Shown here: positions 549 through 37,151 of the stretch, piece by piece
Position numbering within the stretch: position 1 is the first letter of the stretch
Layout: each line of letters opens with the position of its first letter
From: Escherichia coli
Lineage (GTDB): Bacteria; Pseudomonadota; Gammaproteobacteria; Enterobacterales; Enterobacteriaceae
Assembly: GCF_022846255.1 (NCBI RefSeq)
Contig: NZ_AP025682.1
Length of the DNA: 64,000 nucleotides
Strand: one strand, 5' to 3'
Notes under the pieces: generated by a model
What the model was told of the DNA's origin: nothing
The model's database searches: none
Seen by the model: only the letters and a program-made list of their open reading frames with translations
Made by a program: the position numbers and the translations under genes

Positions 549-1343
549 ATGAAGAAGCCTCTGGTTATTATCAGTGCCTGTCAGTTCACCAGGCTGGCAC
601 TGGAGTCTCTCATCCCAACGGACAGGTATCTCGTGCGGGTGTACAGCAACGTCACTACAGAGGTTGAATTCGTTTTAAAGACCTCCTGTGGCTACCTGTT
701 AGCTGATATCCCATCGCTTCCTTCGGGGGAGTTGGTTCTTCTGGCTTGTCTTGTCCGCTTGCGGAGTGATGCCGGGCAATGGCAGGTCTGCCTGACCGGT
801 GACTCCGACTGGTTCGATAATGCTCCTGCTGCAAGTCTGTATAACGGCTTCCCACGCATCGGCACCATGCTGACAGCGAGTCGTTATCAGAATCAAATTA
901 TCCGCTGGTTACTACGTCCTTTGCCCGGCGATATGAGCGATTTCTGGCTCCTGACTGCACGGGAGTTGAGCGTGCTTAAGATTCTGATGCAGGGTATGAG
1001 TTTCAGTGAGATTGCCCGTTATGAACAACGCAGTTCAAAGACCCTGCATGCGATTGCCACACGGGCTTTAATGAAACTTGGACTGGGAACACTGAGCGAT
1101 TTCAGGCTGCTCTATACGGGATGCGGTGACAGCAGAGTGAAACGGAATATACGGCTACATGCAAAATATATCGGACAACATTCCGCTCATCGACTCACTC
1201 AGTATGTGCAGAACATGGTATCCGGAATTCTTTATCCAGAGAAAGTTGCCGTTGGTGAATCAATAAATTCTGACGCCATATCCGGAAAAGTACTTTCCGG
1301 ACAAAGAAAAAATATGTCTAAAAAAAGACCAGGATTGTTATGA
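549..1343 (+). CDS. LuxR-family transcriptional regulator (264 aa), atypical N-terminal domain
   Basis: ATG at 549; LuxR-type HTH ...LTARELSVLKILMQGMSFSEIARYEQRSSKTLHAIATRALMKLGLGT...; N-terminus receiver-like but lacks the acidic DD pocket. Confidence 0.75.
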   Translation: MKKPLVIISACQFTRLALESLIPTDRYLVRVYSNVTTEVEFVLKTSCGYLLADIPSLPSGELVLLACLVRLRSDAGQWQVCLTGDSDWFDNAPAASLYNGFPRIGTMLTASRYQNQIIRWLLRPLPGDMSDFWLLTARELSVLKILMQGMSFSEIARYEQRSSKTLHAIATRALMKLGLGTLSDFRLLYTGCGDSRVKRNIRLHAKYIGQHSAHRLTQYVQNMVSGILYPEKVAVGESINSDAISGKVLSGQRKNMSKKRPGLL

Positions 1344-1496
1344 CACAGCAGCGTTGTTACTACCCCCCACTGCGGCGCATACGGACTCGCTACAGTGTAG
1401 GAGCCAAAATATTTCTACTGCTCTGGGCTGCAGGATTGGGAGGCACGCTGTACAGCCTGTACAGCGTGCTGGCGTACTGACATCTGTGAGGGAAGG

Positions 1497-2258
1497 ATGC
1501 GTTTCGTTCTTTTCTGTCCCTCAGGAATTGTACCAGCGCAGTTCGCAGCTCTATCAACCGGTTCTGTCGGCAATGTTACCTGCATCAGAACAGAAGAGGA
1601 GTTACGCAATAAATTGCGGCACAGGCCACAGAGTGTCGTGATATCGGCAGGGCGACCTGCCGAATGCGCTGAAATGTGGTTCCGATTTTATCGGGATCAC
1701 TCATTCGTGGTGGTGTTGTGCGTCGCACCCTTTTTTCTGCCACCAGATGTGAGTATTTCTGGCGTTCTCAAAAACCTGAGGTTACTGAAACCAGGAATGT
1801 CAGTAGAGCGTGTCATCAGTATTGCAAATGCCTCTGGTGGGTTTTCAGGGCTGAAACATGCAGAAATTTTGCCAGTTATGGACAGTTACTCTGTCTTTAT
1901 GAAAGAGGTGAATAACCGCACAAAGACAATCGTCATGTCAGAACGCTTCCCGGAAAAGCAAAAGAAGGTGTTGTCGTTGCTTCTTGCCGGACACAGCTGG
2001 GAATACAGTGCGCAGTTTCTCAAAACGGGGATAAGACAGATATGGCTTGCCGAGCAGTCGCTAAAAAAGCGTTGGGGAATACCGGACAGCATGTCATTGC
2101 GGGAAGCCCTGCTGCTTGGCAGCAATAAATTTCACGGTGATGGAAACGCATTGGAAACAACGAATGCCATGACATTGCGTGAAAACGGAAATACCAACAG
2201 GTATTCCGTGGTGGTAAATGCAGGGACGCAGGCTTTATCTCTGCATAAATATAAATAA
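1497..2258 (+). CDS. Second LuxR-like regulator (253 aa), degenerate HTH
   Basis: ATG at 1497 with AGGGAAGG SD; C-terminal ...EKQKKVLSLLLAGHSWEYSAQFLKTGIRQIWLAEQSLKKRWGI... resembles a LuxR/GerE HTH. Confidence 0.55.
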   Translation: MRFVLFCPSGIVPAQFAALSTGSVGNVTCIRTEEELRNKLRHRPQSVVISAGRPAECAEMWFRFYRDHSFVVVLCVAPFFLPPDVSISGVLKNLRLLKPGMSVERVISIANASGGFSGLKHAEILPVMDSYSVFMKEVNNRTKTIVMSERFPEKQKKVLSLLLAGHSWEYSAQFLKTGIRQIWLAEQSLKKRWGIPDSMSLREALLLGSNKFHGDGNALETTNAMTLRENGNTNRYSVVVNAGTQALSLHKYK

Positions 2259-2299
2259 GTGGGAAATTGAAATTAGTTACCAGAATGGAGAATTTCTTC

Positions 2300-4762
2300 A
2301 TGAAAAACAGTAAGGCATTTTACCGCAGCGCATTAGCAACAGCTATTGTTATGGCTCTTTCTGCACCAGCATTCGCTGCTGATAAAGCGGTATCAACTGA
2401 TTCGGTTACGCTGAATAAAGATAAGACAACTCTGGATCAAGATGTTGTTATTAACGGTGATAACAAGATTACAGCCGTAACAATTGAAACGTCAGATTCA
2501 GATAAAGACCTTAATGTTACTTTTGGCGGTCACGATATTACCGCCGCATCAACGGTAAACCAAGGTTTCGTTGAAGGTGTAAAAGTTAGCGGTGACAAAA
2601 ATGTTGTGATTAATGCTACAGGCTCCACCATCACAGCTCAAGGTGAAGGCACCTATGTCCGGTCTGCAATGGTCATTTCTTCAACTGGCGATGTTGTTGT
2701 TAATGGCGGTAATTTCGTTGCAAAAAATGAAAAAGGTAGTGCGACAGGGATATCTCTGGAAGGGCCCCAGGGAAATAATGTCACGCTCAATGGCACAACC
2801 ATAAATGCTCAAGGCAATAAGAACTCCAGCAACGGCTCCAGGGCAATTTTTGCTCAAAAGGTTAGCGGATTGGATGGTTTTAACGGTGATGCAACAGACA
2901 ACATTACCCTTGCTGGCTCAAATATTATTAATGGTCGGATTGAAACAATACTTATTGCCAAGGAGAATAAGGGAACTCATACAGTCAACCTGAATATTAA
3001 GGATGGCTCAGTAATTGGGGCGGCTAATAATAAACAAACAATTTATGCCTCAGCTTCGGCACAAGGAACAGGTTCAGCAACGCAAAATTTAAATTTGTCT
3101 GTTGCTGATTCAGCCATCTACTCTGATATCAAGGCCCTTTCTGTAAGCAATAGTTCAGTCGGTACCACAACAAATGTAAACATGAACGTTGCCCGCTCTT
3201 ACTGGGAAGGTAATGCTTATGCTGATGCTTATGGCGATAAAGCGAGTAGTAATCTGAATATAAATCTTTCCGATGGCTCAGTCTGGAAAGGTAACGTAGG
3301 TAAAGGTCTGGATGGTAGTGCACGTGTCACACTGAAAAACTCCAGCTGGGATGGTGATGTCAACAACGCCAAAACTGCTGTTTTTCTGACGGATGGTTCT
3401 GTGTGGAATGGTGCTGTTTCCATTAACGCGCCAGTGGACCGCGCATCAGTACCAATGGGCTCGGTTCAACCAAATAAAAGCAGTGTATCTCTGCAAAACG
3501 GGTCTGTCTGGAATGTTACGGGAGCCTCAACTGTTGATGCTCTGGCAGTAAAAGACAGTACGGTTAATATCACGAAGGCTACAGTCAATACTGGCACGTT
3601 TGCTTCTCAAAACGGCACTCTGATTGTTGATGCCTCTTCTGAAAACACTCTGGATATCAGCGGAAAAGCGAGCGGTGACTTGCGTGTTTACAGTGCGGGT
3701 TCATTGGATCTTATCAATGAACAAACGGCATTTATTTCTACCGGCAAAGACAGCACTCTAAAAGCCACAGGCACAACGGAAGGTGGTCTGTATCAATATG
3801 ACCTGACACAGGGAGCTGATGGTAACTTTTATTTCGTAAAAAACACGCATAAAGCATCCAACGCCAGCTCCGTGATTCAGGCAATGGCAGCTGCTCCGGC
3901 TAACGTTGCTAATCTGCAGGCTGACACGCTCTCCGCCCGTCAGGATGCTGTCCGTCTGAGCGAAAATGACAAGGGCGGCGTATGGATTCAGTACTTTGGC
4001 GGTAAACAGAAACATACCACCGCGGGAAATGCATCCTATGACCTGGATGTAAATGGTGTAATGCTGGGTGGTGATACCCGCTTCATAACTGAAGATGGTA
4101 GCTGGCTGGCCGGTGTGGCGATGTCTTCTGCGAAAGGTGACATGACTACCATGCAGAGCAAAGGTGACACTGAAGGTTACAGCTTCCACGCTTACCTGAG
4201 CCGCCAGTATAACAACGGTATCTTCATTGATACTGCTGCACAGTTTGGTCACTACAGCAACACGGCAGATGTTCGCCTGATGAATGGTGGCGGTACCTTT
4301 AAAGCTGACTTTAACACCAATGGTTTCGGTGCGATGGTTAAAGGTGGTTACACCTGGGAAGACGGTAATGGCCTGTTTATTCAGCCATATGCCAAACTGT
4401 CTGCTCTGACGCTGGAAGGTGTGGATTATCAGCTCAACGGCGTGGACGTTCATTCTGACAGCTATAACTCTGTGCTGGGTGAGGCCGGTACGCGCGTGGG
4501 TTATGACTTCGCTGTGGGCAACTCGACCGTTAAACCTTATCTGAATCTGGCCGCACTGAACGAATTCTCTGATGGCAACAAAGTCCGTCTGGGTGATGAG
4601 TCTGTCAATGCCAGCATTGACGGTGCAGCATTCCGCGTGGGTGCAGGTGTACAGGCTGATATCACCAAAAACATGGGAGCATATGCTAGCCTTGACTACA
4701 CCAAAGGTGACGACATTGAGAACCCGCTACAGGGTGTAGTTGGTATCAATGTGACCTGGTAA
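2300..4762 (+). CDS. Autotransporter (type Va) adhesin, pertactin/AIDA-like passenger plus C-terminal beta-barrel
   Basis: Signal peptide MKNSKAFYRSALATAIVMALSAPAFA; passenger repeats (NGTTINAQG, DGSVWKGNV, DGSVWNGAV, NGSVWNVTG); C-terminal translocator ending ...GVVGINVTW. Track ORF starts at TTG 2267; ATG 2300 has GGAG SD. Confidence 0.85.
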   Translation: MKNSKAFYRSALATAIVMALSAPAFAADKAVSTDSVTLNKDKTTLDQDVVINGDNKITAVTIETSDSDKDLNVTFGGHDITAASTVNQGFVEGVKVSGDKNVVINATGSTITAQGEGTYVRSAMVISSTGDVVVNGGNFVAKNEKGSATGISLEGPQGNNVTLNGTTINAQGNKNSSNGSRAIFAQKVSGLDGFNGDATDNITLAGSNIINGRIETILIAKENKGTHTVNLNIKDGSVIGAANNKQTIYASASAQGTGSATQNLNLSVADSAIYSDIKALSVSNSSVGTTTNVNMNVARSYWEGNAYADAYGDKASSNLNINLSDGSVWKGNVGKGLDGSARVTLKNSSWDGDVNNAKTAVFLTDGSVWNGAVSINAPVDRASVPMGSVQPNKSSVSLQNGSVWNVTGASTVDALAVKDSTVNITKATVNTGTFASQNGTLIVDASSENTLDISGKASGDLRVYSAGSLDLINEQTAFISTGKDSTLKATGTTEGGLYQYDLTQGADGNFYFVKNTHKASNASSVIQAMAAAPANVANLQADTLSARQDAVRLSENDKGGVWIQYFGGKQKHTTAGNASYDLDVNGVMLGGDTRFITEDGSWLAGVAMSSAKGDMTTMQSKGDTEGYSFHAYLSRQYNNGIFIDTAAQFGHYSNTADVRLMNGGGTFKADFNTNGFGAMVKGGYTWEDGNGLFIQPYAKLSALTLEGVDYQLNGVDVHSDSYNSVLGEAGTRVGYDFAVGNSTVKPYLNLAALNEFSDGNKVRLGDESVNASIDGAAFRVGAGVQADITKNMGAYASLDYTKGDDIENPLQGVVGINVTW

Positions 4763-4801
4763 GAATAAAGCAGTCGGTTCCCCTGTCGACTGTTATACCC
4801 C

Positions 4802-4830
4802 CCTGCAGGCAGCAGTATGCTGCCTGCAGG
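4802..4830 (+). terminator. Perfect 13-bp stem / 3-nt loop hairpin downstream of autotransporter (no U-tract)
   Basis: CCTGCAGGCAGCA-GTA-TGCTGCCTGCAGG, 40 bp after stop. Confidence 0.35.
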
Positions 4831-4946
4831 CTATAAATATCCAGTATTCATGATGCTGGCTTTTTGCTGATATTTACCCTGAACATTCCTGATACAGACT
4901 ATTAATACAATCTTATCTGCGACAGATTTCATTTTCTGGATATATT

Positions 4947-5615
4947 ATGAATGAACAAATCAAACAGGATATCGATCTGATTGAGATTTTATTTTATCTG
5001 AAGAAAAAGATTCGTGTTATCCTTTTTATTATAGCTATCTGTATGGCAATGGTGCTGTTGTTTCTGTATATCAATAAAGATAATATAAAAGTGAGTTACA
5101 GCCTAAAAATAAATCAGACAACACCAGGCATACTTGTTAGCTGTGATAGCAATAATAACTTTGTCTGTCAGACCACAATGACTGAAGATGTTATTCAGCG
5201 AATTACTACATTTTTTCAGACCAGCCCAGATGTCAAGAACAGAGAAATAAAGCTGGAATGGTCAGGAGATAAGAGAGATTTACCAACTGCTGAAGCGGAA
5301 ATATCTCGCGTGCAGGCGTCTATCATCAAATGGTATGCGTCAGAATACCATAATGGCAGGCAAGTTCTCGATGAGATACAAACGCCTTCAGCAATTAACA
5401 GTGAGCTTTATACAAAAATGATATACCTGACCAGGAACTGGTCACTATATCCGAACGGTGATGGCTGTGTCACTATAAGCTCACCAGAAATAAAAAATAA
5501 ATACCCTGCTGCCATTTGCCTGGCTCTGGGATTTTTTCTAAGTATTGTGATTTCTGTAATGTTTTGCCTTGTCAAAAAAATGGTAGATGAATACCAACAA
5601 AACTCTGGGCAGTAA
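4947..5615 (+). CDS. ykgH: Predicted inner-membrane protein YkgH
   Basis: 222 aa, N-terminal TM segment (ILFIIAICMAMVLLFLYI) and C-terminal TM; position next to ykgG matches ykgH. Confidence 0.6.
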   Translation: MNEQIKQDIDLIEILFYLKKKIRVILFIIAICMAMVLLFLYINKDNIKVSYSLKINQTTPGILVSCDSNNNFVCQTTMTEDVIQRITTFFQTSPDVKNREIKLEWSGDKRDLPTAEAEISRVQASIIKWYASEYHNGRQVLDEIQTPSAINSELYTKMIYLTRNWSLYPNGDGCVTISSPEIKNKYPAAICLALGFFLSIVISVMFCLVKKMVDEYQQNSGQ

Positions 5616-26906: not shown

Positions 26907-27173
26907 ATGATGAAACCCAATATCCATCCTGAGTATCGTACTGTGGTGTTCCACGACACCAGCGTTGATGAGTACTTTAAAATCGGCTCGACTATCAAAA
27001 CAGACCGTGAGATTGAGCTGGATGGCGTAACGTATCCGTACGTAACAATTGATGTCTCTTCGAAATCGCACCCGTTCTATACAGGGAAGCTGAGAACAGT
27101 GGCATCAGAAGGAAATGTTGCACGGTTCACCCAACGTTTTGGTCGTTTTGTTAGCACGAAAAAGGGGGCATGA
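26907..27173 (+). CDS. ykgM: Ribosomal protein L31 paralog (type B, zinc-independent)
   Basis: M(M)[25 protein letters not shown]... lacking the CxxC zinc ribbon; ATG at 26907 or 26910. Confidence 0.9.
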
Positions 27174-27313
27174 TGAAAGTCCTTAACTCTCTGCGTACCG
27201 CAAAAGAACGCCATCCAGACTGTCAGATTGTGAAGCGAAAAGGACGGCTGTATGTGATTTGTAAATCTAATCCACGTTTTAAGGCCGTTCAGGGTCGTAA
27301 GAAAAAACGTTGA
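27173..27313 (+). CDS. ykgO: Ribosomal protein L36 paralog (46 aa)
   Basis: [46 protein letters not shown]; ATG overlaps ykgM stop (TGATG); below track size cutoff. Confidence 0.9.
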
Positions 27314-27363
27314 TTCAAAATTCGACGAATTAACGATATTTGTCTGATTAATAATCAGACCGG

Positions 27364-27402
27364 ATTAATGTTGGTGTATTTATTACACCAGCATTAATTT
27401 TC
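27364..27402 (+). terminator. Intrinsic terminator after ykgM-ykgO
   Basis: 15-bp stem (1 mismatch) ATTAATGTTGGTGTA/TACACCAGCATTAAT then TTTT. Confidence 0.6.
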
Positions 27403-28327
27403 CTGGGGATGTATCTTCCTGTTCATTTAAGGTCAACTGCCTGACGTTTCTCTCCGAATATTCCATTATATTAATGTTGACTTGTTGACCAGTTTCGCCC
27501 TGTATGCTGGCATCAACTCTATTTTAGACTGAACACGCCACTCAGTTTCCTCCCTTTGCGACGCAGCCTGCATTTACACTCAAACTGTTAAGATGATAAA
27601 TGTGGTAAATCTGTTGGTACTGACATAAAAACGTTTACGCCACAGGAACGGCCAGATCCATCGGTAACCCCATCGCCGACGTTCGAGTGCCAGTTAGAGT
27701 AACACGCACAGATGACTGAATGCAGTGCCCTGGCAAAGAGGCCATCGTTCCTGTGACAACTGGCAGTCTTCGTTTAACTTCACTTAATTTGGCTCTTGGG
27801 GGGCTTACCGGACAGATGACGTACTTACACCTGTTTAATTTTTCATCACTTATTGGGATGAACACCCATAACCATTTTGTGCGGCATGTTAATCCATTAA
27901 AACACCTTACCGATTGGCAAATCATCTTTAATTATGACTTATGATAGTTTTATATTCTATTTCTTATCATTTAAACTTGTTTTTTTACTAGTCCATTACA
28001 CAACACATTAAGACTATTCCTAACACCTCAGGGCAAAGTTCCTGGCTAATATAAAATGCAAGTAAGAATTGAACGTTATATTGCCAATAACCTTATGAAA
28101 CTGAATGTCTTTTTCTTCTTATCAAAAAAGCAATATTTTCATTTTTTGTAAATATTGACTTAACCATGGAATTCATTTTCTGTTCACATATTGACACTCA
28201 TCAGGAAAAAAACATAAATTTAAACCTAATCGAAATAATTAAAACTTAATCTCGTTTAACCTATATTGATATGTGCTACGTATCTTATTTACTTCCGATT
28301 TACTAAAGAAACTGAATGTACCTGTAA

Positions 28328-28939
<612 letters not shown>

Positions 28940-29013
28940 ACTCCAGGCAAGTTAGTTTTAAAAAATGACTCACCGGGACTTCATGTCCTCAATTCAACTC
29001 GGGAAGAAAAGCA

Positions 29014-29601
29014 ATGAAAAAAAAGGTTCTGGCAATAGCTCTGGTAACGGTGTTTACCGGTACAGGTGTAGCGCAGGCTGCTGACGTAACAGCTCAGGCT
29101 GTAGCGACCTGGTCAGCAACAGCCAAAAAAGACACCACCAGTAAGCTGGTTGTGACGCCACTCGGTAGCCTGGCGTTCCAGTATGCCGAAGGCATTAAAG
29201 GTTTTAACTCACAAAAAGGTCTATTTGACGTGGCTATCGAGGGTGACTCAACGGCTACCGCCTTTAAACTGACCTCACGCCTTATCACCAACACCTTAAC
29301 CCAGTTGGATACCTCAGGTTCCACACTGAATGTGGGCGTGGATTATAACGGCGCGGCAGTCGAAAAAACTGGCGATACCGTGATGATCGATACCGCCAAC
29401 GGCGTACTGGGCGGCAACCTTAGCCCACTGGCTAACGGTTACAATGCCAGCAATCGTACCACCGCACAGGATGGTTTCACTTTCTCCATCATCAGCGGCA
29501 CCACCAATGGTACCACCGCAGTAACCGATTACAGCACTCTACCGGAAGGCATCTGGAGCGGCGACGTTAGCGTACAGTTCGACGCTACCTGGACCAGTTA
29601 A
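29014..29601 (+). CDS. ecpA: E. coli common pilus major subunit EcpA (MatB)
   Basis: 195 aa; signal peptide [22 protein letters not shown]; T/S/G-rich pilin. Confidence 0.9.
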
Positions 29602-29616
29602 TCTCTCTGATGTACC

Positions 29617-29636
29617 AGCAGGGGTACCCCCCTGCT
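29617..29636 (+). terminator. Hairpin after ecpA (possible attenuator)
   Basis: AGCAGGGG-TACC-CCCCTGCT followed by TTATT, between ecpA stop and ecpB start. Confidence 0.35.
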
Positions 29637-29657
29637 TTATTCCTGGACGGAATTGTT

Positions 29658-30326
29658 ATGAAAAAGCACCTTCTGCCTCTCGCTCTGCTGTTTTCCGGAA
29701 TATCACCGGCCCAGGCGCTGGATGTCGGCGATATATCATCGTTTATGAACAGTGACAGCAGCACGCTAAGCAAAACGATCCAAAACAGTACCGACAGTGG
29801 CCGCCTCATCAATATCCGTCTCGAACGGCTCTCTTCACCGCTTGACGACGGGCAGGTTATCGCAATGGACAAGCCGGATGAGTTGCTACTCACTCCCGCC
29901 AGCTTGCTGCTACCCGCCCAAGCCAGCGAAGTGATCCGCTTCTTCTATAAGGGACCAGCAGATGAAAAAGAGCGCTACTACCGCATTGTCTGGTTTGATC
30001 AGGCCCTCAGTGATGCGCAGCGCGATAATGCCAACCGTAGCGCTGTGGCCACTGCTTCCGCCCGCATCGGCACCATTCTGGTCGTCGCACCCCGCCAGGC
30101 GAACTACCACTTTCAGTACGCCAACGGCTCCCTGACAAATACAGGAAATGCGACGTTGCGGATCCTCGCCTACGGCCCCTGCCTGAAAGCCGCCAATGGT
30201 AAGGAGTGTAAAGAGAATTACTACCTGATGCCGGGCAAGTCGCGTCGTTTTACCCGCGTGGACACGGCGGATAACAAAGGACGGGTTGCACTTTGGCAGG
30301 GTGATAAGTTCATTCCCGTGAAATAG
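29658..30326 (+). CDS. ecpB: Periplasmic pilus chaperone EcpB
   Basis: 222 aa from [20 protein letters not shown] (track ORF extends 16 codons upstream). Confidence 0.85.
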
Positions 30327-30351
30327 ATAGCTGTGCAGATGGATAACGACA

Positions 30352-32877
30352 ATGCCTTTACGACGGTTCTCCCCAGGACTGAAAGCCCAGTTTGCCTTCG
30401 GCATGGTCTTTTTGTTCGTTCAGCCCGATGCCAGCGCTGCTGACATAAGTGCGCAGCAAATAGGTGGGGTGATTATTCCGCAGGCCTTCAGTCAGGCGCT
30501 TCAGGACGGCATGAGCGTCCCGCTCTATATTCATCTCGCCGGTAGCCAGGGTCGCCAGGACGATCAGCGAATCGGCAGCGCTTTTATCTGGTTGGATGAT
30601 GGACAGTTACGCATCCGGAAAATACAGCTGGAAGAGAGTGAAGATAACGCCAGTGTCAGCGAACAAACTCGACAGCAACTGATGACTCTGGCCAACGCCC
30701 CGTTCAATGAGGCCCTTACCATCCCCCTGACTGACAACGCGCAGTTGGATCTCAGCTTGCGCCAACTGCTGCTGCAGCTGGTGGTCAAGCGCGAAGCGCT
30801 GGGCACCGTACTACGCTCACGTAGCGAAGACATCGGGCAGTCCAGTGTTAACACCCTCAGCAGTAATCTGAGCTATAACTTCGGCGTCTATAACAACCAG
30901 TTGCGTAACGGCGGGAGCAACACCTCCAGCTATCTGTCGCTGAATAACGTTACTGCGCTGCGCGAACATCACGTGGTGCTCGACGGCTCACTGTACGGGA
31001 TTGGTAGCGGTCAACAGGACAGTGAATTATATAAAGCGATGTATGAACGCGATTTTGCTGGTCACCGATTTGCCGGTGGAATGCTCGACACCTGGAACTT
31101 GCAGTCCTTAGGGCCGATGACCGCCATTTCAGCAGGGAAGATTTACGGCCTTTCCTGGGGAAACCAGGCCAGCTCCACCATCTTCGACAGCAGCCAGTCG
31201 GCCACGCCAGTGATCGCCTTTTTACCGGCGGCGGGCGAAGTACATCTCACCCGTGATGGGCGGCTACTAAGCGTTCAGAACTTCACCATGGGCAATCATG
31301 AAGTGGATACCCGGGGTCTACCGTACGGTATTTACGATGTGGAAGTTGAGGTAATCGTTAACGGTCGCGTGATCAGCAAACGCACCCAGCGGGTCAATAA
31401 GCTGTTTAGCCGGGGGCGTGGCGTCGGTGCACCGCTGGCGTGGCAGATATGGGGCGGTAGCTTTCATATGGATCGCTGGTCGGAAAACGGGAAAAAGACG
31501 CGACCAGCCAAAGAGAGTTGGCTGGCAGGTGCCTCGACCTCCGGCTCACTGAGTACGCTTAGCTGGGCGGCAACGGGATATGGATACGATAATCAGGCGG
31601 TGGGTGAAACCCGTCTGACGCTGCCGCTTGGGGGGGCGATCAACGTTAACCTGCAAAACATGCTGGCCAGTGACAGCTCATGGAGCAACATCGCCAGCAT
31701 CAGCGCCACTCTACCTGGAGGCTTCAGTTCGCTGTGGGTTAACCAGGAAAAAACCCGCATTGGCAATCAATTGCGACGTAGCGATGCCGACAACCGTGCA
31801 ATCGGCGGCACACTCAACCTGAACTCACTGTGGTCGAAGCTGGGTACGTTCAGCATCAGCTACAATGATGACCGCCGCTACAACAGCCATTATTACACGG
31901 CAGATTACTATCAAAGTGTCTACAGCGGTACCTTTGGTTCGCTTGGCCTGCGGGCCGGTATTCAGCGCTATAACAACGGCGACAGCAGCGCCAATACAGG
32001 GAAATATATCGCTCTCGATCTCTCGCTACCACTGGGCAACTGGTTTAGCGCAGGGATGACCCATCAAAACGGCTACACCATGGCAAACCTGTCAGCACGC
32101 AAACAGTTTGATGAAGGAACCATTCGCACTGTTGGTGCCAATCTGTCACGAGCCATCTCCGGCGATACCGGTGATGACAAAACCCTCAGCGGTGGGGCGT
32201 ATGCACAGTTCGACGCTCGTTACGCCAGCGGAACGCTGAACGTCAATAGCGCGGCGGACGGCTACATCAATACCAATTTGACCGCCAACGGCAGCGTCGG
32301 CTGGCAGGGTAAAAACATCGCTGCCAGCGGGCGGACCGATGGCAACGCTGGGGTGATATTCGACACTGGCCTGGAGAACGATGGTCAGATCAGCGCCAAA
32401 ATCAACGGGCGGATTTTCCCGCTTAACGGCAAGCGTAACTATCTCCCGCTCTCTCCCTATGGAAGATATGAGGTGGAGTTGCAGAACAGCAAAAACTCAC
32501 TCGACAGTTACGATATCGTCAGCGGTCGCAAAAGTCATCTGACTCTCTATCCAGGCAATGTCGCTGTCATTGAGCCAGAGGTGAAGCAGATGGTTACCGT
32601 CTCCGGTCGTATCCGTGCGGAAGACGGCACACTGCTGGCTAACGCACGGATTAACAACCATATCGGCCGAACCCGAACCGATGAAAACGGCGAGTTTGTC
32701 ATGGACGTGGATAAGAAATACCCCACTATCGATTTTCGCTACAGTGGCAATAAAACCTGCGAAGTGGCACTGGAACTCAACCAGGCGCGCGGTGCCGTCT
32801 GGGTCGGTGATGTGGTCTGCAGCGGCCTCTCATCGTGGGCGGCGGTGACGCAGACAGGAGAAGAGAATGAGAGTTAA
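30352..32877 (+). CDS. ecpC: Outer-membrane usher EcpC
   Basis: 841 aa with signal peptide; position in ecp operon. Confidence 0.9.
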
Positions 32878-34510
32878 CCTACTGATAGCGATGATAATCT
32901 TTGCGCTAATCTGGCCTGCAACCGCGCTCAGAGCGGCAGTGAGCAAAACAACCTGGGCGGATGCTCCGGCACGCGAGTTTGTGTTTGTCGAAAACAACTC
33001 AGACGACAACTTTTTCGTCACTCCTGGCGGGGCGCTGGATCCGCGCCTGACCGGTGCCAACCGCTGGACCGGTTTAAAATACAATGGTTCAGGAACCATC
33101 TATCAGCAAAGCCTCGGCTACATTGATAACGGTTACAACACCGGCCTTTATACCAACTGGAAGTTTGATATGTGGCTGGAAAATTCACCAGTTTCATCTC
33201 CTTTAACTGGCTTGCGCTGCATCAACTGGTACGCAGGGTGTAATATGACCACCAGTCTTATCCTGCCGCAAACCACCGACGCCAGTGGATTTTATGGCGC
33301 GACGGTGACCAGCGGCGGCGCGAAATGGATGCACGGCATGTTGTCAGACGCGTTTTACCAGTATCTGCAACAAATGCCCGTCGGCAGCAGCTTTACAATG
33401 ACCATCAATGCCTGCCAGACCTCTGTGAACTATGACGCCAGCAGCGGCGCACGCTGTAAGGATCAGGCCTCCGGCAACTGGTATGTTCGCAACGTCACCC
33501 ATACGAAAGCAGCAAATCTGCGGTTGATAAATACCCACTCGCTGGCGGAAGTATTTATCAACAGCGACGGAGTTCCGACTCTGGGCGAAGGGAACGCCGA
33601 CTGCCGGACGCAAACCATCGGCAGTCGTTCAGGATTAAGTTGTAAGATGGTTAACTATACCCTGCAAACAAACGGACTCAGCAACACCTCAATCCATATA
33701 TTCCCGGCGATCGCCAACTCGTCGTTAGCCTCGGCCGTCGGGGCGTACGATATGCAGTTCAGTCTGAATGGCAGTTCATGGAAACCGGTGAGCAATACTG
33801 CCTATTACTACACCTTCAACGAGATGAAGAGCGCAGACTCGATCTATGTTTTCTTCTCGAGCAACTTCTTTAAACAGATGGTGAACCTCGGGATCAGCGA
33901 TATCAACACCAAAGATCTATTCAACTTTCGCTTTCAGAACACCACATCACCGGAGTCTGGCTGGTATGAATTTTCTACCTCCAACACGCTGATTATCAAA
34001 CCCCGTGATTTCAGCATCAGTATTATCTCCGATGAATATACTCAGACACCGTCGCGGGAGGGATATGTCGGCAGCGGCGAGTCGGCACTCGATTTCGGCT
34101 ATATCGTAACCACCAGCGGTAAAACAGCTGCCGACGAAGTGCTGATCAAGGTGACCGGACCCGCGCAGGTGATTGGCGGGCGCTCCTATTGTGTCTTCAG
34201 CTCCGATGACGGTAAGGCTAAAGTACCGTTCCCGGCGACGCTTTCCTTTATTACCCGCAACGGAGCTACAAAAACCTACGATGCCGGGTGCGATGATAGC
34301 TGGCGGGATATGACCGATGCGCTGTGGTTGACCACACCGTGGACTGATATCTCTGGCGAAGTGGGGCAGATGGATAAGACCACAGTCAAATTTTCGATTC
34401 CAATGGATAACGCCATTTCTCTGCGTACGGTAGATGATAACGGCTGGTTTGGCGAAGTCAGCGCTTCAGGAGAGATTCATGTTCAGGCGACGTGGCGTAA
34501 CATTAACTAA
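32867..34510 (+). CDS. ecpD: Pilus tip adhesin EcpD
   Basis: 547 aa with signal peptide [23 protein letters not shown]; overlaps ecpC by 11 nt. Confidence 0.9.
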
Positions 34511-35189
34511 GGCCCTGCTGACAGTGGTCTGTATGCTGGCGGCACCTTTGACACAGGCGATTTCGGTCGGCAATCTGACTTTTTCACTGCCGTCCGAGAC
34601 TGACTTTGTCAGCAAACGTGTCGTGAATAACAACAAAAGCGCGCGGATATACCGTATTGCCATCAGTGCTATTGATAGCCCGGGCAGCAGTGAATTGCGC
34701 ACCCGACCGGTGGATGGTGAACTACTTTTCGCCCCCCGCCAGCTGGCGTTGCAGGCTGGTGAGAGCGAGTATTTTAAATTTTACTATCATGGTCCACGGG
34801 ATAACCGCGAGCGCTACTACCGGGTCTCATTTCGCGAGGTCCCCACTCGTAACCTGACAAAACGCAGCCCAACCGGCGGTGAGGTCAGCACGGAGCCGGT
34901 GGTGGTGATGGATACCATTCTGGTAGTACGACCACGTCAGGTTCAGTTTAAATGGTCCTTCGATCAGGTGACCGGAACGGTAAGTAACACCGGCAACACG
35001 TGGTTTAAGCTACTGATTAAACCAGGATGTGATTCGACCGAAGAGGAAGGCGATGCCTGGTATCTACGTCCGGGAGACGTGGTTCATCAGCCTGAGTTAC
35101 GTCAGCCGGGGAATCATTATCTGGTCTATAACGACAAATTCATTAAGATTAGCGATTCCTGTCCGGCTAAGCCCCCTTCGGCGGACTAA
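34479..35189 (+). CDS. ecpE: Second chaperone EcpE
   Basis: 236 aa from [27 protein letters not shown] with AGGAG SD; overlaps ecpD 3' end. Confidence 0.85.
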
Positions 35190-35501
35190 GACTTATCCAT
35201 CAGACGAGGGAAGAATTCCACCTCAGAGACTCAAAAATCGTTTAAATGATGTGGAAGCGATCGTCAATGTCACCTGTAACGATGAGCTTTCTCATATGCA
35301 CACCACAGTGTTCAGGAGACACGGAAAGGTACCAGGCGGCCTGCTAACGAGTGGTTTCTTCACTAATTAGGACGTAAAATCGGTAACGGCTGGAAATCAT
35401 TCAATACTCACACTATCGAAAGTACACCAGCCAACCGAGATACGTCCCTGCATACGACGTACCGCAGTTATCTTTACGATTTATAGCTGTACTGGTGAAT
35501 T

Positions 35502-35831
35502 ATGAGCAATCTGAATCCATGCATGACGTGTGGTGCCTGTTGTGCATTTTTCCGCGTCTCTTTTTACTGGGCCGAAGCCGACGATGCTGGCGGTACCATT
35601 CCCGCCAGGCTCACTGAACAAATATCCCCTTTTCACCGATGCATGAGCGGTACTAATCAGAAAAATCCCCGATGTATTGCCCTTGCAGGAACACCGGGCA
35701 AAAATGCCTGCTGCACGATATATGAAAATCGATCGTCCACATGCAGAGAATTCGCCATGTCTGGTGAGAACGGAGAAGTCAATGAGGCTTGCAATCGTGC
35801 AAGAGCTAAATACGGGCTAACACCGTTATAA
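35502..35831 (+). CDS. ykgJ: YkgJ-family cysteine-cluster (putative zinc/iron-binding) protein
   Basis: 109 aa, [11 protein letters not shown] and C-x-T-x-Y-x(n)-C motifs. Confidence 0.8.
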
Positions 35832-35853
35832 ATATACAATAATTAATTGCATT

Positions 35854-35888
35854 GCCCCGCCAGCTGTAATAGCGGGGCTTCGTTTTTC
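35854..35888 (+). terminator. Intrinsic terminator after ykgJ
   Basis: GCCCCGC...GCGGGGC stem followed by TTCGTTTTTC. Confidence 0.6.
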
Positions 35889-36038
35889 AGGGACAACAAA
35901 ACCTGAAACTTCTTCCATTTTCCAGCAACAATGCCTCTTCTTCTGTAGCGTTCTCCGGATCTACATCATCCTGAAGTAGCGCGATATGATCACTGACTGT
36001 CCGCATCAGAATATGAAAAGCAACGTTTTTAACCTATA

Positions 36039-36065
36039 AAAATGGCGCTATATTTGCGCCATTTT
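36039..36065 (-). terminator. Intrinsic (bidirectional) terminator after yagU
   Basis: AAAATGGCGC-TATATTT-GCGCCATTTT perfect 10-bp stem flanked by A/T runs. Confidence 0.6.
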
Positions 36066-36079
36066 TATCATTCAAAGCA

Positions 36080-36694
36080 TTATCTATTTGAGCCTAAAGG
36101 GATCTCAGGATCTGGCTCATGGGTAATTCTGTTTCGTAAATCTCTGCGAATAATTTCAATAGACCAGAACCAGACTAAATGTCCAAAAATTTCAGAGACA
36201 TTCTCATACCACGGAAGCTCAAAGAGAGGTGGCGTAAGTCCCATGAGAGGGAATGAAATCATATGAACAAAAAGTTGCGCTAAAGCACCTGCCAGTAAGC
36301 CCTGCCAAAGTTTAATTTTCGGAAATACTTCGGCGACCACACAGTAACCAACGGCAAAAACTATCGAAAAGATTATGTGCGTTACACCAACCCAGTTAAA
36401 GACATGCCCGGCGAAGGTATAAACAGCCGAATTTGGATCTGTCAGTCCCAACCAATCCCGAAGAAAAATGTACGGAGGATTGAGAAAGTTACGGGAGCAA
36501 TCAATTTGGCCTGCAGCCCTGATTAATGATTCCGGACCACACGCTGCATTAAACATATCAACCGGACTACGTGGTGGCAATGGAACTTCTGCCCCCCACT
36601 TAACAAATGCGGAAACAACGCCAGCAATCAGCCCAATGAATGCAGCAAGACCATAACGTCTGCGGTTTGGTGGAGTTTGTTCAAATATATTCAT
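36080..36694 (-). CDS. yagU: Inner-membrane protein YagU (DUF1440)
   Basis: 204 aa, multi-[36 protein letters not shown]... Confidence 0.85.
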
Positions 36695-36901
36695 ATCTAC
36701 CCTGCTTGTACCATTATGTTATACACCTCTTTAGGAGTATTCATAAAACAAGGCAAATGTAAAGAACTGTATTGTTTTGTATAACCACATGGTTACCTAA
36801 TCGCCAATTAATATAAGCTCCATTATTTCTCCATATTTTTATGTTAGAAGTGACAAGGAGAAATGTAATGTTTCTCTCAGAGAATATAAATCATTCCTTT
36901 T

Positions 36902-36926
36902 GCCCACCTTAATGGTGGGCTTTTTT
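36902..36926 (+). terminator. Intrinsic terminator in the yagU-thrW spacer
   Basis: GCCCACC-TTAAT-GGTGGGC then TTTTTT; overlaps the stop of a 14-codon mini-ORF. Confidence 0.5.
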
Positions 36927-37151
36927 ATGCAAAACCTGAACGTCCTGTGGTATTCCTCTGGCATAATGATTTTCGCGATTAACCAACAACCAGACCAGCA
37001 AAGACGCCACCACAAGCACAGCAACATCCATCAGGCTTGCCACACCCCATGCGTGCGGCTCAAAGCCGCCATGGCATATTAATCCGCTTGCCATTTTCGA
37101 ACAGCTGATTGGTTTAGTCCGGTGTTTCCCTGCTTGCACTTAAAAATGAGC

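Follow-up and report, generated by a model that had tools for sequence, protein, structure and literature searches.

A conserved hairpin between ecpA and ecpB, a probable leaky terminator behind the pilin gene of the ecp (mat) fimbrial operon

In the pap operon, a stable papA mRNA that carries the pilin only is derived from the papBA transcript, and its 3' end is an RNase-resistant terminator structure (PMC5927463). The same source names CFA/I as a case of differential mRNA decay in a fimbrial operon of pathogenic E. coli (its reference 11, Jordi 1993), and describes the intercistronic REP hairpin of malE-malF, which protects the upstream, more needed segment from 3' exonucleases. The ecp operon, whose ECP/Mat fimbriae count among the adhesins most widely found in E. 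coli and related bacteria, shares with pap the order of regulator, major pilin, hairpin and assembly genes. The purpose appears alike in both, an excess of pilin message; the processed ecpA mRNA is known second-hand, from the passage of PMC5962669 that attributes it to Lehti 2013. There is, however, no sequence similarity between the two operons, pap being a classical and ecp an alternative chaperone-usher system, and whereas the 3' end of the pap message has been described, the ecp hairpin is likened to it from sequence, with an RNase E cut and a 3' end that are putative. CFA/I and ECP both belong to the alternative class; CFA/I differs in that the chaperone gene, cfaA, precedes cfaB, and in that the mechanism described for it is differential decay, not termination. 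A structure after the major subunit gene cfaB reportedly takes part. Both malE-malF and ecp have an intercistronic hairpin after the upstream gene, but the REP element belongs to a multi-copy family without a U tract, whereas the ecp hairpin is single-copy and is followed by a conserved T tract. As the design is textbook for pilus operons (pap, CFA/I), the present analysis adds an annotation and a well-supported comparative case, and no new principle.

The window, by which we mean the whole 64-kb stretch of E. coli DNA that was analysed, contains a complete ecpRABCDE (matABCDEF) operon, and the 2.1 kb surrounding the hairpin are 100% identical to E. coli Nissle 1917. The genes are as follows.

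28397..28939, plus strand: ecpR (matA), LuxR-type activator, gene 1 of the operon (NCBIfam equivalog; RefSeq 543-nt gene)
29014..29601, plus strand: ecpA (matB), major pilin (NF047910, 313.9 bits; TAA stop codon at 29599-29601)
29658..30326, plus strand: ecpB, chaperone, the first gene that would depend on read-through (Pfam EcpB_C)
30352-32877, plus strand: ecpC, usher (CooC_C and TcfC domains)
32867-34510, plus strand: ecpD, tip adhesin (NCBIfam equivalog)
34434-35189, plus strand: ecpE, second chaperone (coordinates of the mechanical ORF)

EcpR, EcpA and EcpD were identified by NCBIfam equivalog models and EcpB by the Pfam EcpB_C model, while Pfam assigned EcpC to the CS1/Tcf-type ushers of the alternative chaperone-usher class; all identities are consistent with RefSeq annotation across 5007 E. 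coli genomes. The mechanical ORF of ecpR starts at 28349, and the alignment to the NCBIfam model begins at residue 17, in agreement with the 543-nt RefSeq gene. For ecpB the mechanical ORF begins at 29610, with an in-frame ATG, and a signal peptide results when the start annotated at 29658 is used. ORFs at 549-5615 were considered as a second pilus operon for comparison and were rejected, as a LuxR-family regulator and an autotransporter are found there. The part of PMC10038029 that cites Martinez-Santos 2012 describes the ecp genes as an operon whose promoter lies 121 bp upstream of ecpR, and a scan of the plus strand from 28782 to 36500 found no promoter-like sites. If the promoter upstream of ecpR is the only one, expression of ecpB-E would require that transcription read through the ecpA-ecpB junction, whose parts are listed below.

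29602..29616, plus strand: spacer from the stop codon to the hairpin, 15 nt (16 nt to the G-C core)
29617..29636, plus strand: putative terminator/stabiliser hairpin, 8 bp, of which 6 are G-C
29637..29644, plus strand: interrupted U tract TTATTCCT, the expected RNA release site
29645..29657, plus strand: ecpB ribosome-binding region GGACGGAATTGTT

An earlier note on this DNA had placed a hairpin just after ecpA, between ecpA and ecpB, and the sequence reads as it stated: the 5' arm AGCAGGGG occupies 29617-29624, the loop TACC 29625-29628 and the 3' arm CCCCTGCT 29629-29636, so that the hairpin stands 16 nt past the ecpA stop codon and 21 nt ahead of the ecpB start codon. The T-rich run that the note had placed after the stem is present, but it is short and interrupted; counted from the G-C core the tail is TTTATTCC, with 5 T in 8, and the T run itself is modest (UUUAUUCC). 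The 56-nt spacer folds with a minimum free energy (MFE) of -18.5 kcal/mol in a structure that includes the 8-bp hairpin (z = -2.17 versus dinucleotide shuffles), and the isolated hairpin accounts for -14.5 kcal/mol. When 140, 260 or 460 nt were folded, the seven core pairs retained a pairing probability of at least 0.97. The stem is of the form expected of intrinsic terminators (G+C-rich, about 5-14 bp, loop of 3-8 nt) and is followed directly on its 3' side, on the transcribed strand, by a U-rich tract, though an interrupted one; the opposite strand of the E. coli hairpin has no T run. In our own implementation of the d'Aubenton-Carafa score, the E. coli hairpin reached d = +12, a value that is only moderate, in agreement with the interrupted U tract.

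A short palindrome of this kind might arise by chance or be a copy of a REP/BIME-like repeat with no specific role, and a loose terminator scan, which includes the ecpA-ecpB site, gave that possibility some room, because its enrichment over shuffles was weak (14 sites found versus 9.2 expected). Since the loose scan was barely enriched, a stricter one was devised, which accepted a site when its stem was perfect, spanned 7 bp or more and held 5 or more G-C pairs, when its loop measured 3-8 nt, and when 4 or more of the 6 nt that follow were T. The strict scan returned 8 distinct sites on both strands of the window versus 0.6 +/- 0.8 in 30 dinucleotide shuffles, an enrichment of about 13-fold, and at these rates a chance match in this 56-nt spacer on this strand would be expected about 3 times in 10,000. 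When the 8 strict sites were compared with the ORF list, the ecpA-ecpB hairpin was the only one within an operon, the rest lying outside large ORFs. The terminators at operon ends in the window, for example 36902-36920 (GCCCACC-TTAAT-GGTGGGC followed by TTTTTT), resemble the ecp hairpin in their G+C-rich perfect stem, short loop and T tract; they differ from it in lying outside large ORFs and in having an unbroken run of 4-6 T, whereas the ecp hairpin is intra-operonic and is followed by an interrupted TTTATT, as would be expected for incomplete termination. With respect to repeats, an Rfam scan of 27000-37000 (E up to 1) found no family match at 29602-29657, and a covariance model of the hairpin, which matched the ecpA-ecpB junction only, detected no second copy, either elsewhere in the window or among 31 related loci (next best E > 1); the hairpin is thus not a member of a multi-copy REP/BIME family. 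Together with the presence of a hairpin at the same position in about 15 genera, described below, which excludes chance, these results leave the reading as a chance palindrome or stray repeat scarcely credible.

In order to compare the junction across genera, an EcpB alignment was scanned against one genome per species, yielding 32 loci, from 30 of which the spacer could be taken; 27 of the spacers were distinct. The 27 come from Escherichia, Klebsiella, Raoultella, Enterobacter, Phytobacter, Pluralibacter, Cedecea, Citrobacter, Pantoea, Serratia, Kosakonia, Morganella and Symbiopectobacterium, about 15 enterobacterial genera in all. Every one of the 27 distinct spacers contains a G+C-rich hairpin whose stem has 6-10 bp and whose loop has 3-6 nt; it mostly starts 16-17 nt past the pilin stop codon, and from its end to the chaperone ATG there are mostly 22-23 nt. 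In every orthologous operon examined, the hairpin occupies the same position between the gene for the major subunit and the assembly genes. The stems themselves differ: GCAGGGG/CCCCTGC in the Escherichia-Klebsiella group, GCAGGGA/TCCCTGC in Pluralibacter, GGCGGG/CCCGCC in Serratia and Symbiopectobacterium, GGGCAG/CTGCCC in Morganella, and GCAGGAGCGA/TCGCTCCTGC in Kosakonia sacchari. By our d'Aubenton-Carafa implementation, d exceeded 0 in 24 of the 30 orthologous loci; the negative scores include K. spallanzanii, Phytobacter locus b, C. amalonaticus and one MAG.

Pairs were counted on 21 distinct sequences aligned by the covariance model; standard pairs filled 99.0% of the cells, versus 54-74% when the partner was slid by 1-3 columns, in an alignment that, being fitted to the model, is biased toward structure. 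A first model-based alignment had been replaced because it held reverse-strand and noise matches, and a plain MAFFT alignment of the 27 spacers was left out of the pair counts because it misaligned the divergent stems. Among the 21 model-aligned sequences, changes on both sides occur at three pairs and G·U wobbles at 6 of the 10 pairs; within the GCAGGGG group covariation is modest, with three pairs invariant and four varying on one side only. A base-anchored pair table gave 100% pairing in cis versus 76% with the arms swapped, a comparison that is partly circular, as the pairs were taken from predicted hairpins. That genera differ in the whole stem while its position stays fixed is, on the sequences compared here, a stronger argument than these covariation statistics.

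The same comparison bears on whether the palindrome could be a DNA site for a dimeric protein, such as EcpR or another regulator. The E. coli element is a perfect 8-bp inverted repeat, and the spacer contains TTCCT at 29640-29644, a motif that is reportedly the EcpR box. That motif was rejected as an EcpR box, since its conservation does not extend to other genera and chance alone would produce a given 5-mer about 125 times in the window. Between genera it is the pairing that is kept and not the sequence of the arms; the G·U pairs at 6 of 10 positions are non-palindromic in DNA; and the element is strand-asymmetric, with its T tract on the sense strand only. The differing stems, compensatory changes, G·U pairs and strand asymmetry favour an RNA element over a DNA site, which we regard as a highly improbable explanation.

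An RNA hairpin behind a pilin gene may act by ending transcription, by protecting the RNA upstream of it, or both, and here the sequence that follows the stem is the main discriminant. Over the 27 spacers, the fraction of T at positions +1 to +6 after the core was 1.0, 0.93, 0.70, 0.52, 0.93 and 0.81, and at most 0.37 beyond, figures that are somewhat inflated because the tail contributes to the score by which the ends of the hairpin were set. Uninterrupted runs of 6-7 T are found in an Enterobacter MAG, Phytobacter, Pantoea and Symbiopectobacterium. We considered whether the hairpin might serve as a barrier to 3' exonucleases without any termination, an endonuclease cutting downstream and chew-back then leaving a stable ecpA segment. 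Such an account would agree with the processed ecpA mRNA of regulated stability that PMC5962669, where it cites Lehti 2013, mentions, with the wide occurrence in E. coli operons of differential decay with protective 3' structures, CFA/I being named among them (PMC5927463), and with the weak, interrupted U tract of E. coli and the existence of transcripts that span the hairpin. A barrier alone would nevertheless be served by the stem and needs no T tract, yet a tract of about 6 nt is conserved in genera with differing stems, and several of these genera have it as a canonical run of 6-7 T. It is mainly for this reason that a terminator is preferred to a pure stabiliser, and protection without termination is to our minds unlikely, though it keeps a real share of the probability. 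The two roles are compatible and not exclusive.

We therefore favour, as the likely though by no means certain reading of the sequence, a leaky intrinsic (Rho-independent) terminator that would also form the protective 3' end of ecpA-ending transcripts, in the manner of papA and cfaB. The partial terminator that the earlier note had proposed behind the pilin gene is supported by the conservation of hairpin, T tract and spacing in about 15 genera despite changing stems, by its being the sole strict terminator-like site within an operon in the window, by the promoter upstream of ecpR on which the downstream genes are reported to depend (PMC10038029), by the read-through seen in RT-PCR (below), by the processed ecpA mRNA of differing stability that is known second-hand, and by the precedent of pap.

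Published transcript data were examined for evidence of RNA that ends at, or crosses, the junction. The primer pairs designated 'ecpA' and 'ecpB' in PMC5962669 map to 28996-29655 and 29606-30385 of the window, and both amplicons cross the hairpin. RT-PCR products were obtained for all six ecp genes in four strains and three media, in a qualitative assay (PMC5962669); products that span the hairpin imply some read-through, so any termination must be incomplete. To Lehti 2013 that paper attributes the finding that EcpR/MatA makes the processed ecpA mRNA more stable when temperature is low, pH is acidic or acetate is high (PMC5962669). RNA-seq papers that name the mat operon gave no per-gene abundances, and a search of the open full-text literature on ecpA together with terminator, hairpin or stem-loop found no description of this hairpin; it may already be implicit in Lehti 2013. 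The ecp operon is poorly expressed in laboratory cultures of K-12. For this reason we regard as uninformative the absence of a sense 3' end at the ecpA-ecpB junction from an E. coli K-12 Term-seq table (PMC7815308), which has only an antisense end in ecpA.

In the proposed mechanism, transcription would begin upstream of ecpR, and once polymerase had passed the hairpin at 29617-29636 and stood on the UUUAUU tract, a fraction of the complexes would release their RNA. The released transcripts would end just past ecpA, and the remainder would continue into ecpB-E. Whether an ecpA-ending RNA came from termination or from cleavage of a longer RNA, the hairpin would shield it from 3'-to-5' exonucleases, and this protection, combined with processing between ecpR and ecpA, would give an abundant and stable pilin message. 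The outcome would be more message for EcpA than for the chaperone, usher and adhesin, an excess that is consistent with a fibre built mainly of EcpA. The geometry of the junction suggests how its parts could work together: with 16-17 nt from stop codon to stem, the hairpin could form behind a terminating ribosome, its 5' arm being uncovered; the interrupted U tract would lead to partial release; and the 22-23 nt to the ecpB ATG would keep the ribosome-binding site accessible on RNA that reads through. What we infer from the sequence is that termination occurs at the U tract, that it is partial and that it affects protein ratios; its efficiency could be low, as the U tract is short and interrupted. 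On this basis the ecpA-ecpB hairpin probably sets how much pilin message there is relative to message for the assembly genes, and it is worth keeping when the ecp operon is cloned or engineered.

Downstream of the main hairpin, a second, weak helix of 5 bp is predicted at 29639-29653 (ATTCC-TGGAC-GGAAT), the loop of which holds the GGA of the ecpB ribosome-binding region. Over 21 orthologues the helix is 74% paired; at one position A-U is replaced by C-G, the outer pair cannot form in 16 of the 21, and the helix is absent from the MFE structure in longer contexts. We asked on these grounds whether the structures of the spacer might mainly set the translation of ecpB, through access to its Shine-Dalgarno sequence or by uncoupling it from translation of ecpA. 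The small helix and the nearly constant 22-23 nt from stem to ecpB ATG are what such an account would draw upon; the weakness of that helix speaks against it, as does the position of the main hairpin, which is clear of the ribosome-binding region, and the T tract would be left unexplained. A mainly translational role is in our estimation very unlikely. Somewhat less so, but still a speculative suggestion, is that the junction is a regulated attenuator, at which read-through or the stability of ecpA RNA is tuned by temperature, EcpR/MatA or another factor; in that case the constant geometry, and with it the conserved box containing GGA that follows the U tract, might belong to a regulated switch. 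If this were true, the ratio of pilin to assembly machinery would be a controlled variable, which could explain why strains with transcripts of every ecp gene are unequal in their production of ECP (PMC5962669).

Within E. coli, the 62-nt junction was matched in 4966 of 5426 complete genomes; 1252 of the records are identical to the window and 3694 have 95-99% identity. Changes in the sampled genomes fall mostly in the loop. In three of four full-length variants that were inspected, the only difference is a 1-nt indel in the loop (TAGCC or TCC for TACC) or a base substitution in the part of the spacer that precedes the stem; the stem is also kept in a divergent E. coli (L001), whose loop is GCCA. 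The fourth, a rare variant in strain 61_150228 (L036), has the 3' arm CCCCAGCT in place of CCCCTGCT, in which a T-to-A change breaks an A-U pair in mid-stem. In E. coli OkiPb01676 (L037, about 2030-3300), the 3' arm of the hairpin is interrupted by an IS421 (IS4-like) element; within 2 kb downstream the annotation has no ecpB but a hypothetical gene and rayT, and the assembly genes appear from this sequence to have been lost.

A different rearrangement is present in Klebsiella indica (L002, 2745-3000), whose ecpA-ecpB spacer is 256 nt long versus the usual length of about 58 nt. In order, this spacer contains a 13-bp hairpin without a T tract, an insertion of about 200 nt that holds a REP-like palindrome, TAGGCCCGAGTAAGCGAAGCGCCACCGGGC, and a degenerate second copy of the hairpin that bears the usual TTATTTCACGG tail, so that stem and U tract are naturally split. 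The conserved geometry, together with natural variants (loop indels, the mismatch of 61_150228 and the K. indica split), is ready material for work on the tuning of leaky terminators.

Other features near ecpA were recorded in the course of the analysis. About 25 nt upstream of the ecpA ATG there is a further candidate hairpin.

28975..28989, plus strand: candidate ecpA 5'-leader hairpin, GGGAC-TTCAT-GTCCT

This stem or variants of it occupy the equivalent position in E. coli, Klebsiella, Raoultella, Pantoea, Citrobacter and Phytobacter (GGGAC/GTCCC in Klebsiella, GGGC/GCCT in Raoultella; GGAC/GTCC also occurs), and by analogy with papBA it could be a 5' protective structure of the processed ecpA mRNA. 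Further upstream, tblastn with E. coli EcpR (E up to 1e-5) over about 2.3 kb upstream of ecpA in loci L007-L030 found no homologue, Pantoea sp. 1.19 excepted; the negative loci are those of Raoultella, most Enterobacter, Serratia, Kosakonia, Morganella and others. To judge from these searches, the regulator gene may be absent, divergent or located elsewhere in such operons.

Within ecpA, on the minus strand from 29400 to 29360, lies a terminator-like antisense hairpin, GTTGGCGGTATCGATCATCACGGTATCGCCAGT followed by TTTTTTCG, which needs G·U pairs and hence forms in antisense RNA only. No promoter-like site was found near it on the minus strand in a scan of the window. The sequence of the antisense hairpin matches a Term-seq 3' end at MG1655 310323(+), designated 'antisense' to ecpA in two entries (PMC7815308, Adams et al. 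2021). Downstream of the ecp operon, the minus strand contains a full-length match to Rfam IS009 at 35874-36074 (197 bits, E = 2e-48). Within this match, the perfect palindrome ATGGCGC-N7-GCGCCAT at 36042-36062 is accompanied by T runs on both strands, on account of which it looks like a bidirectional terminator.
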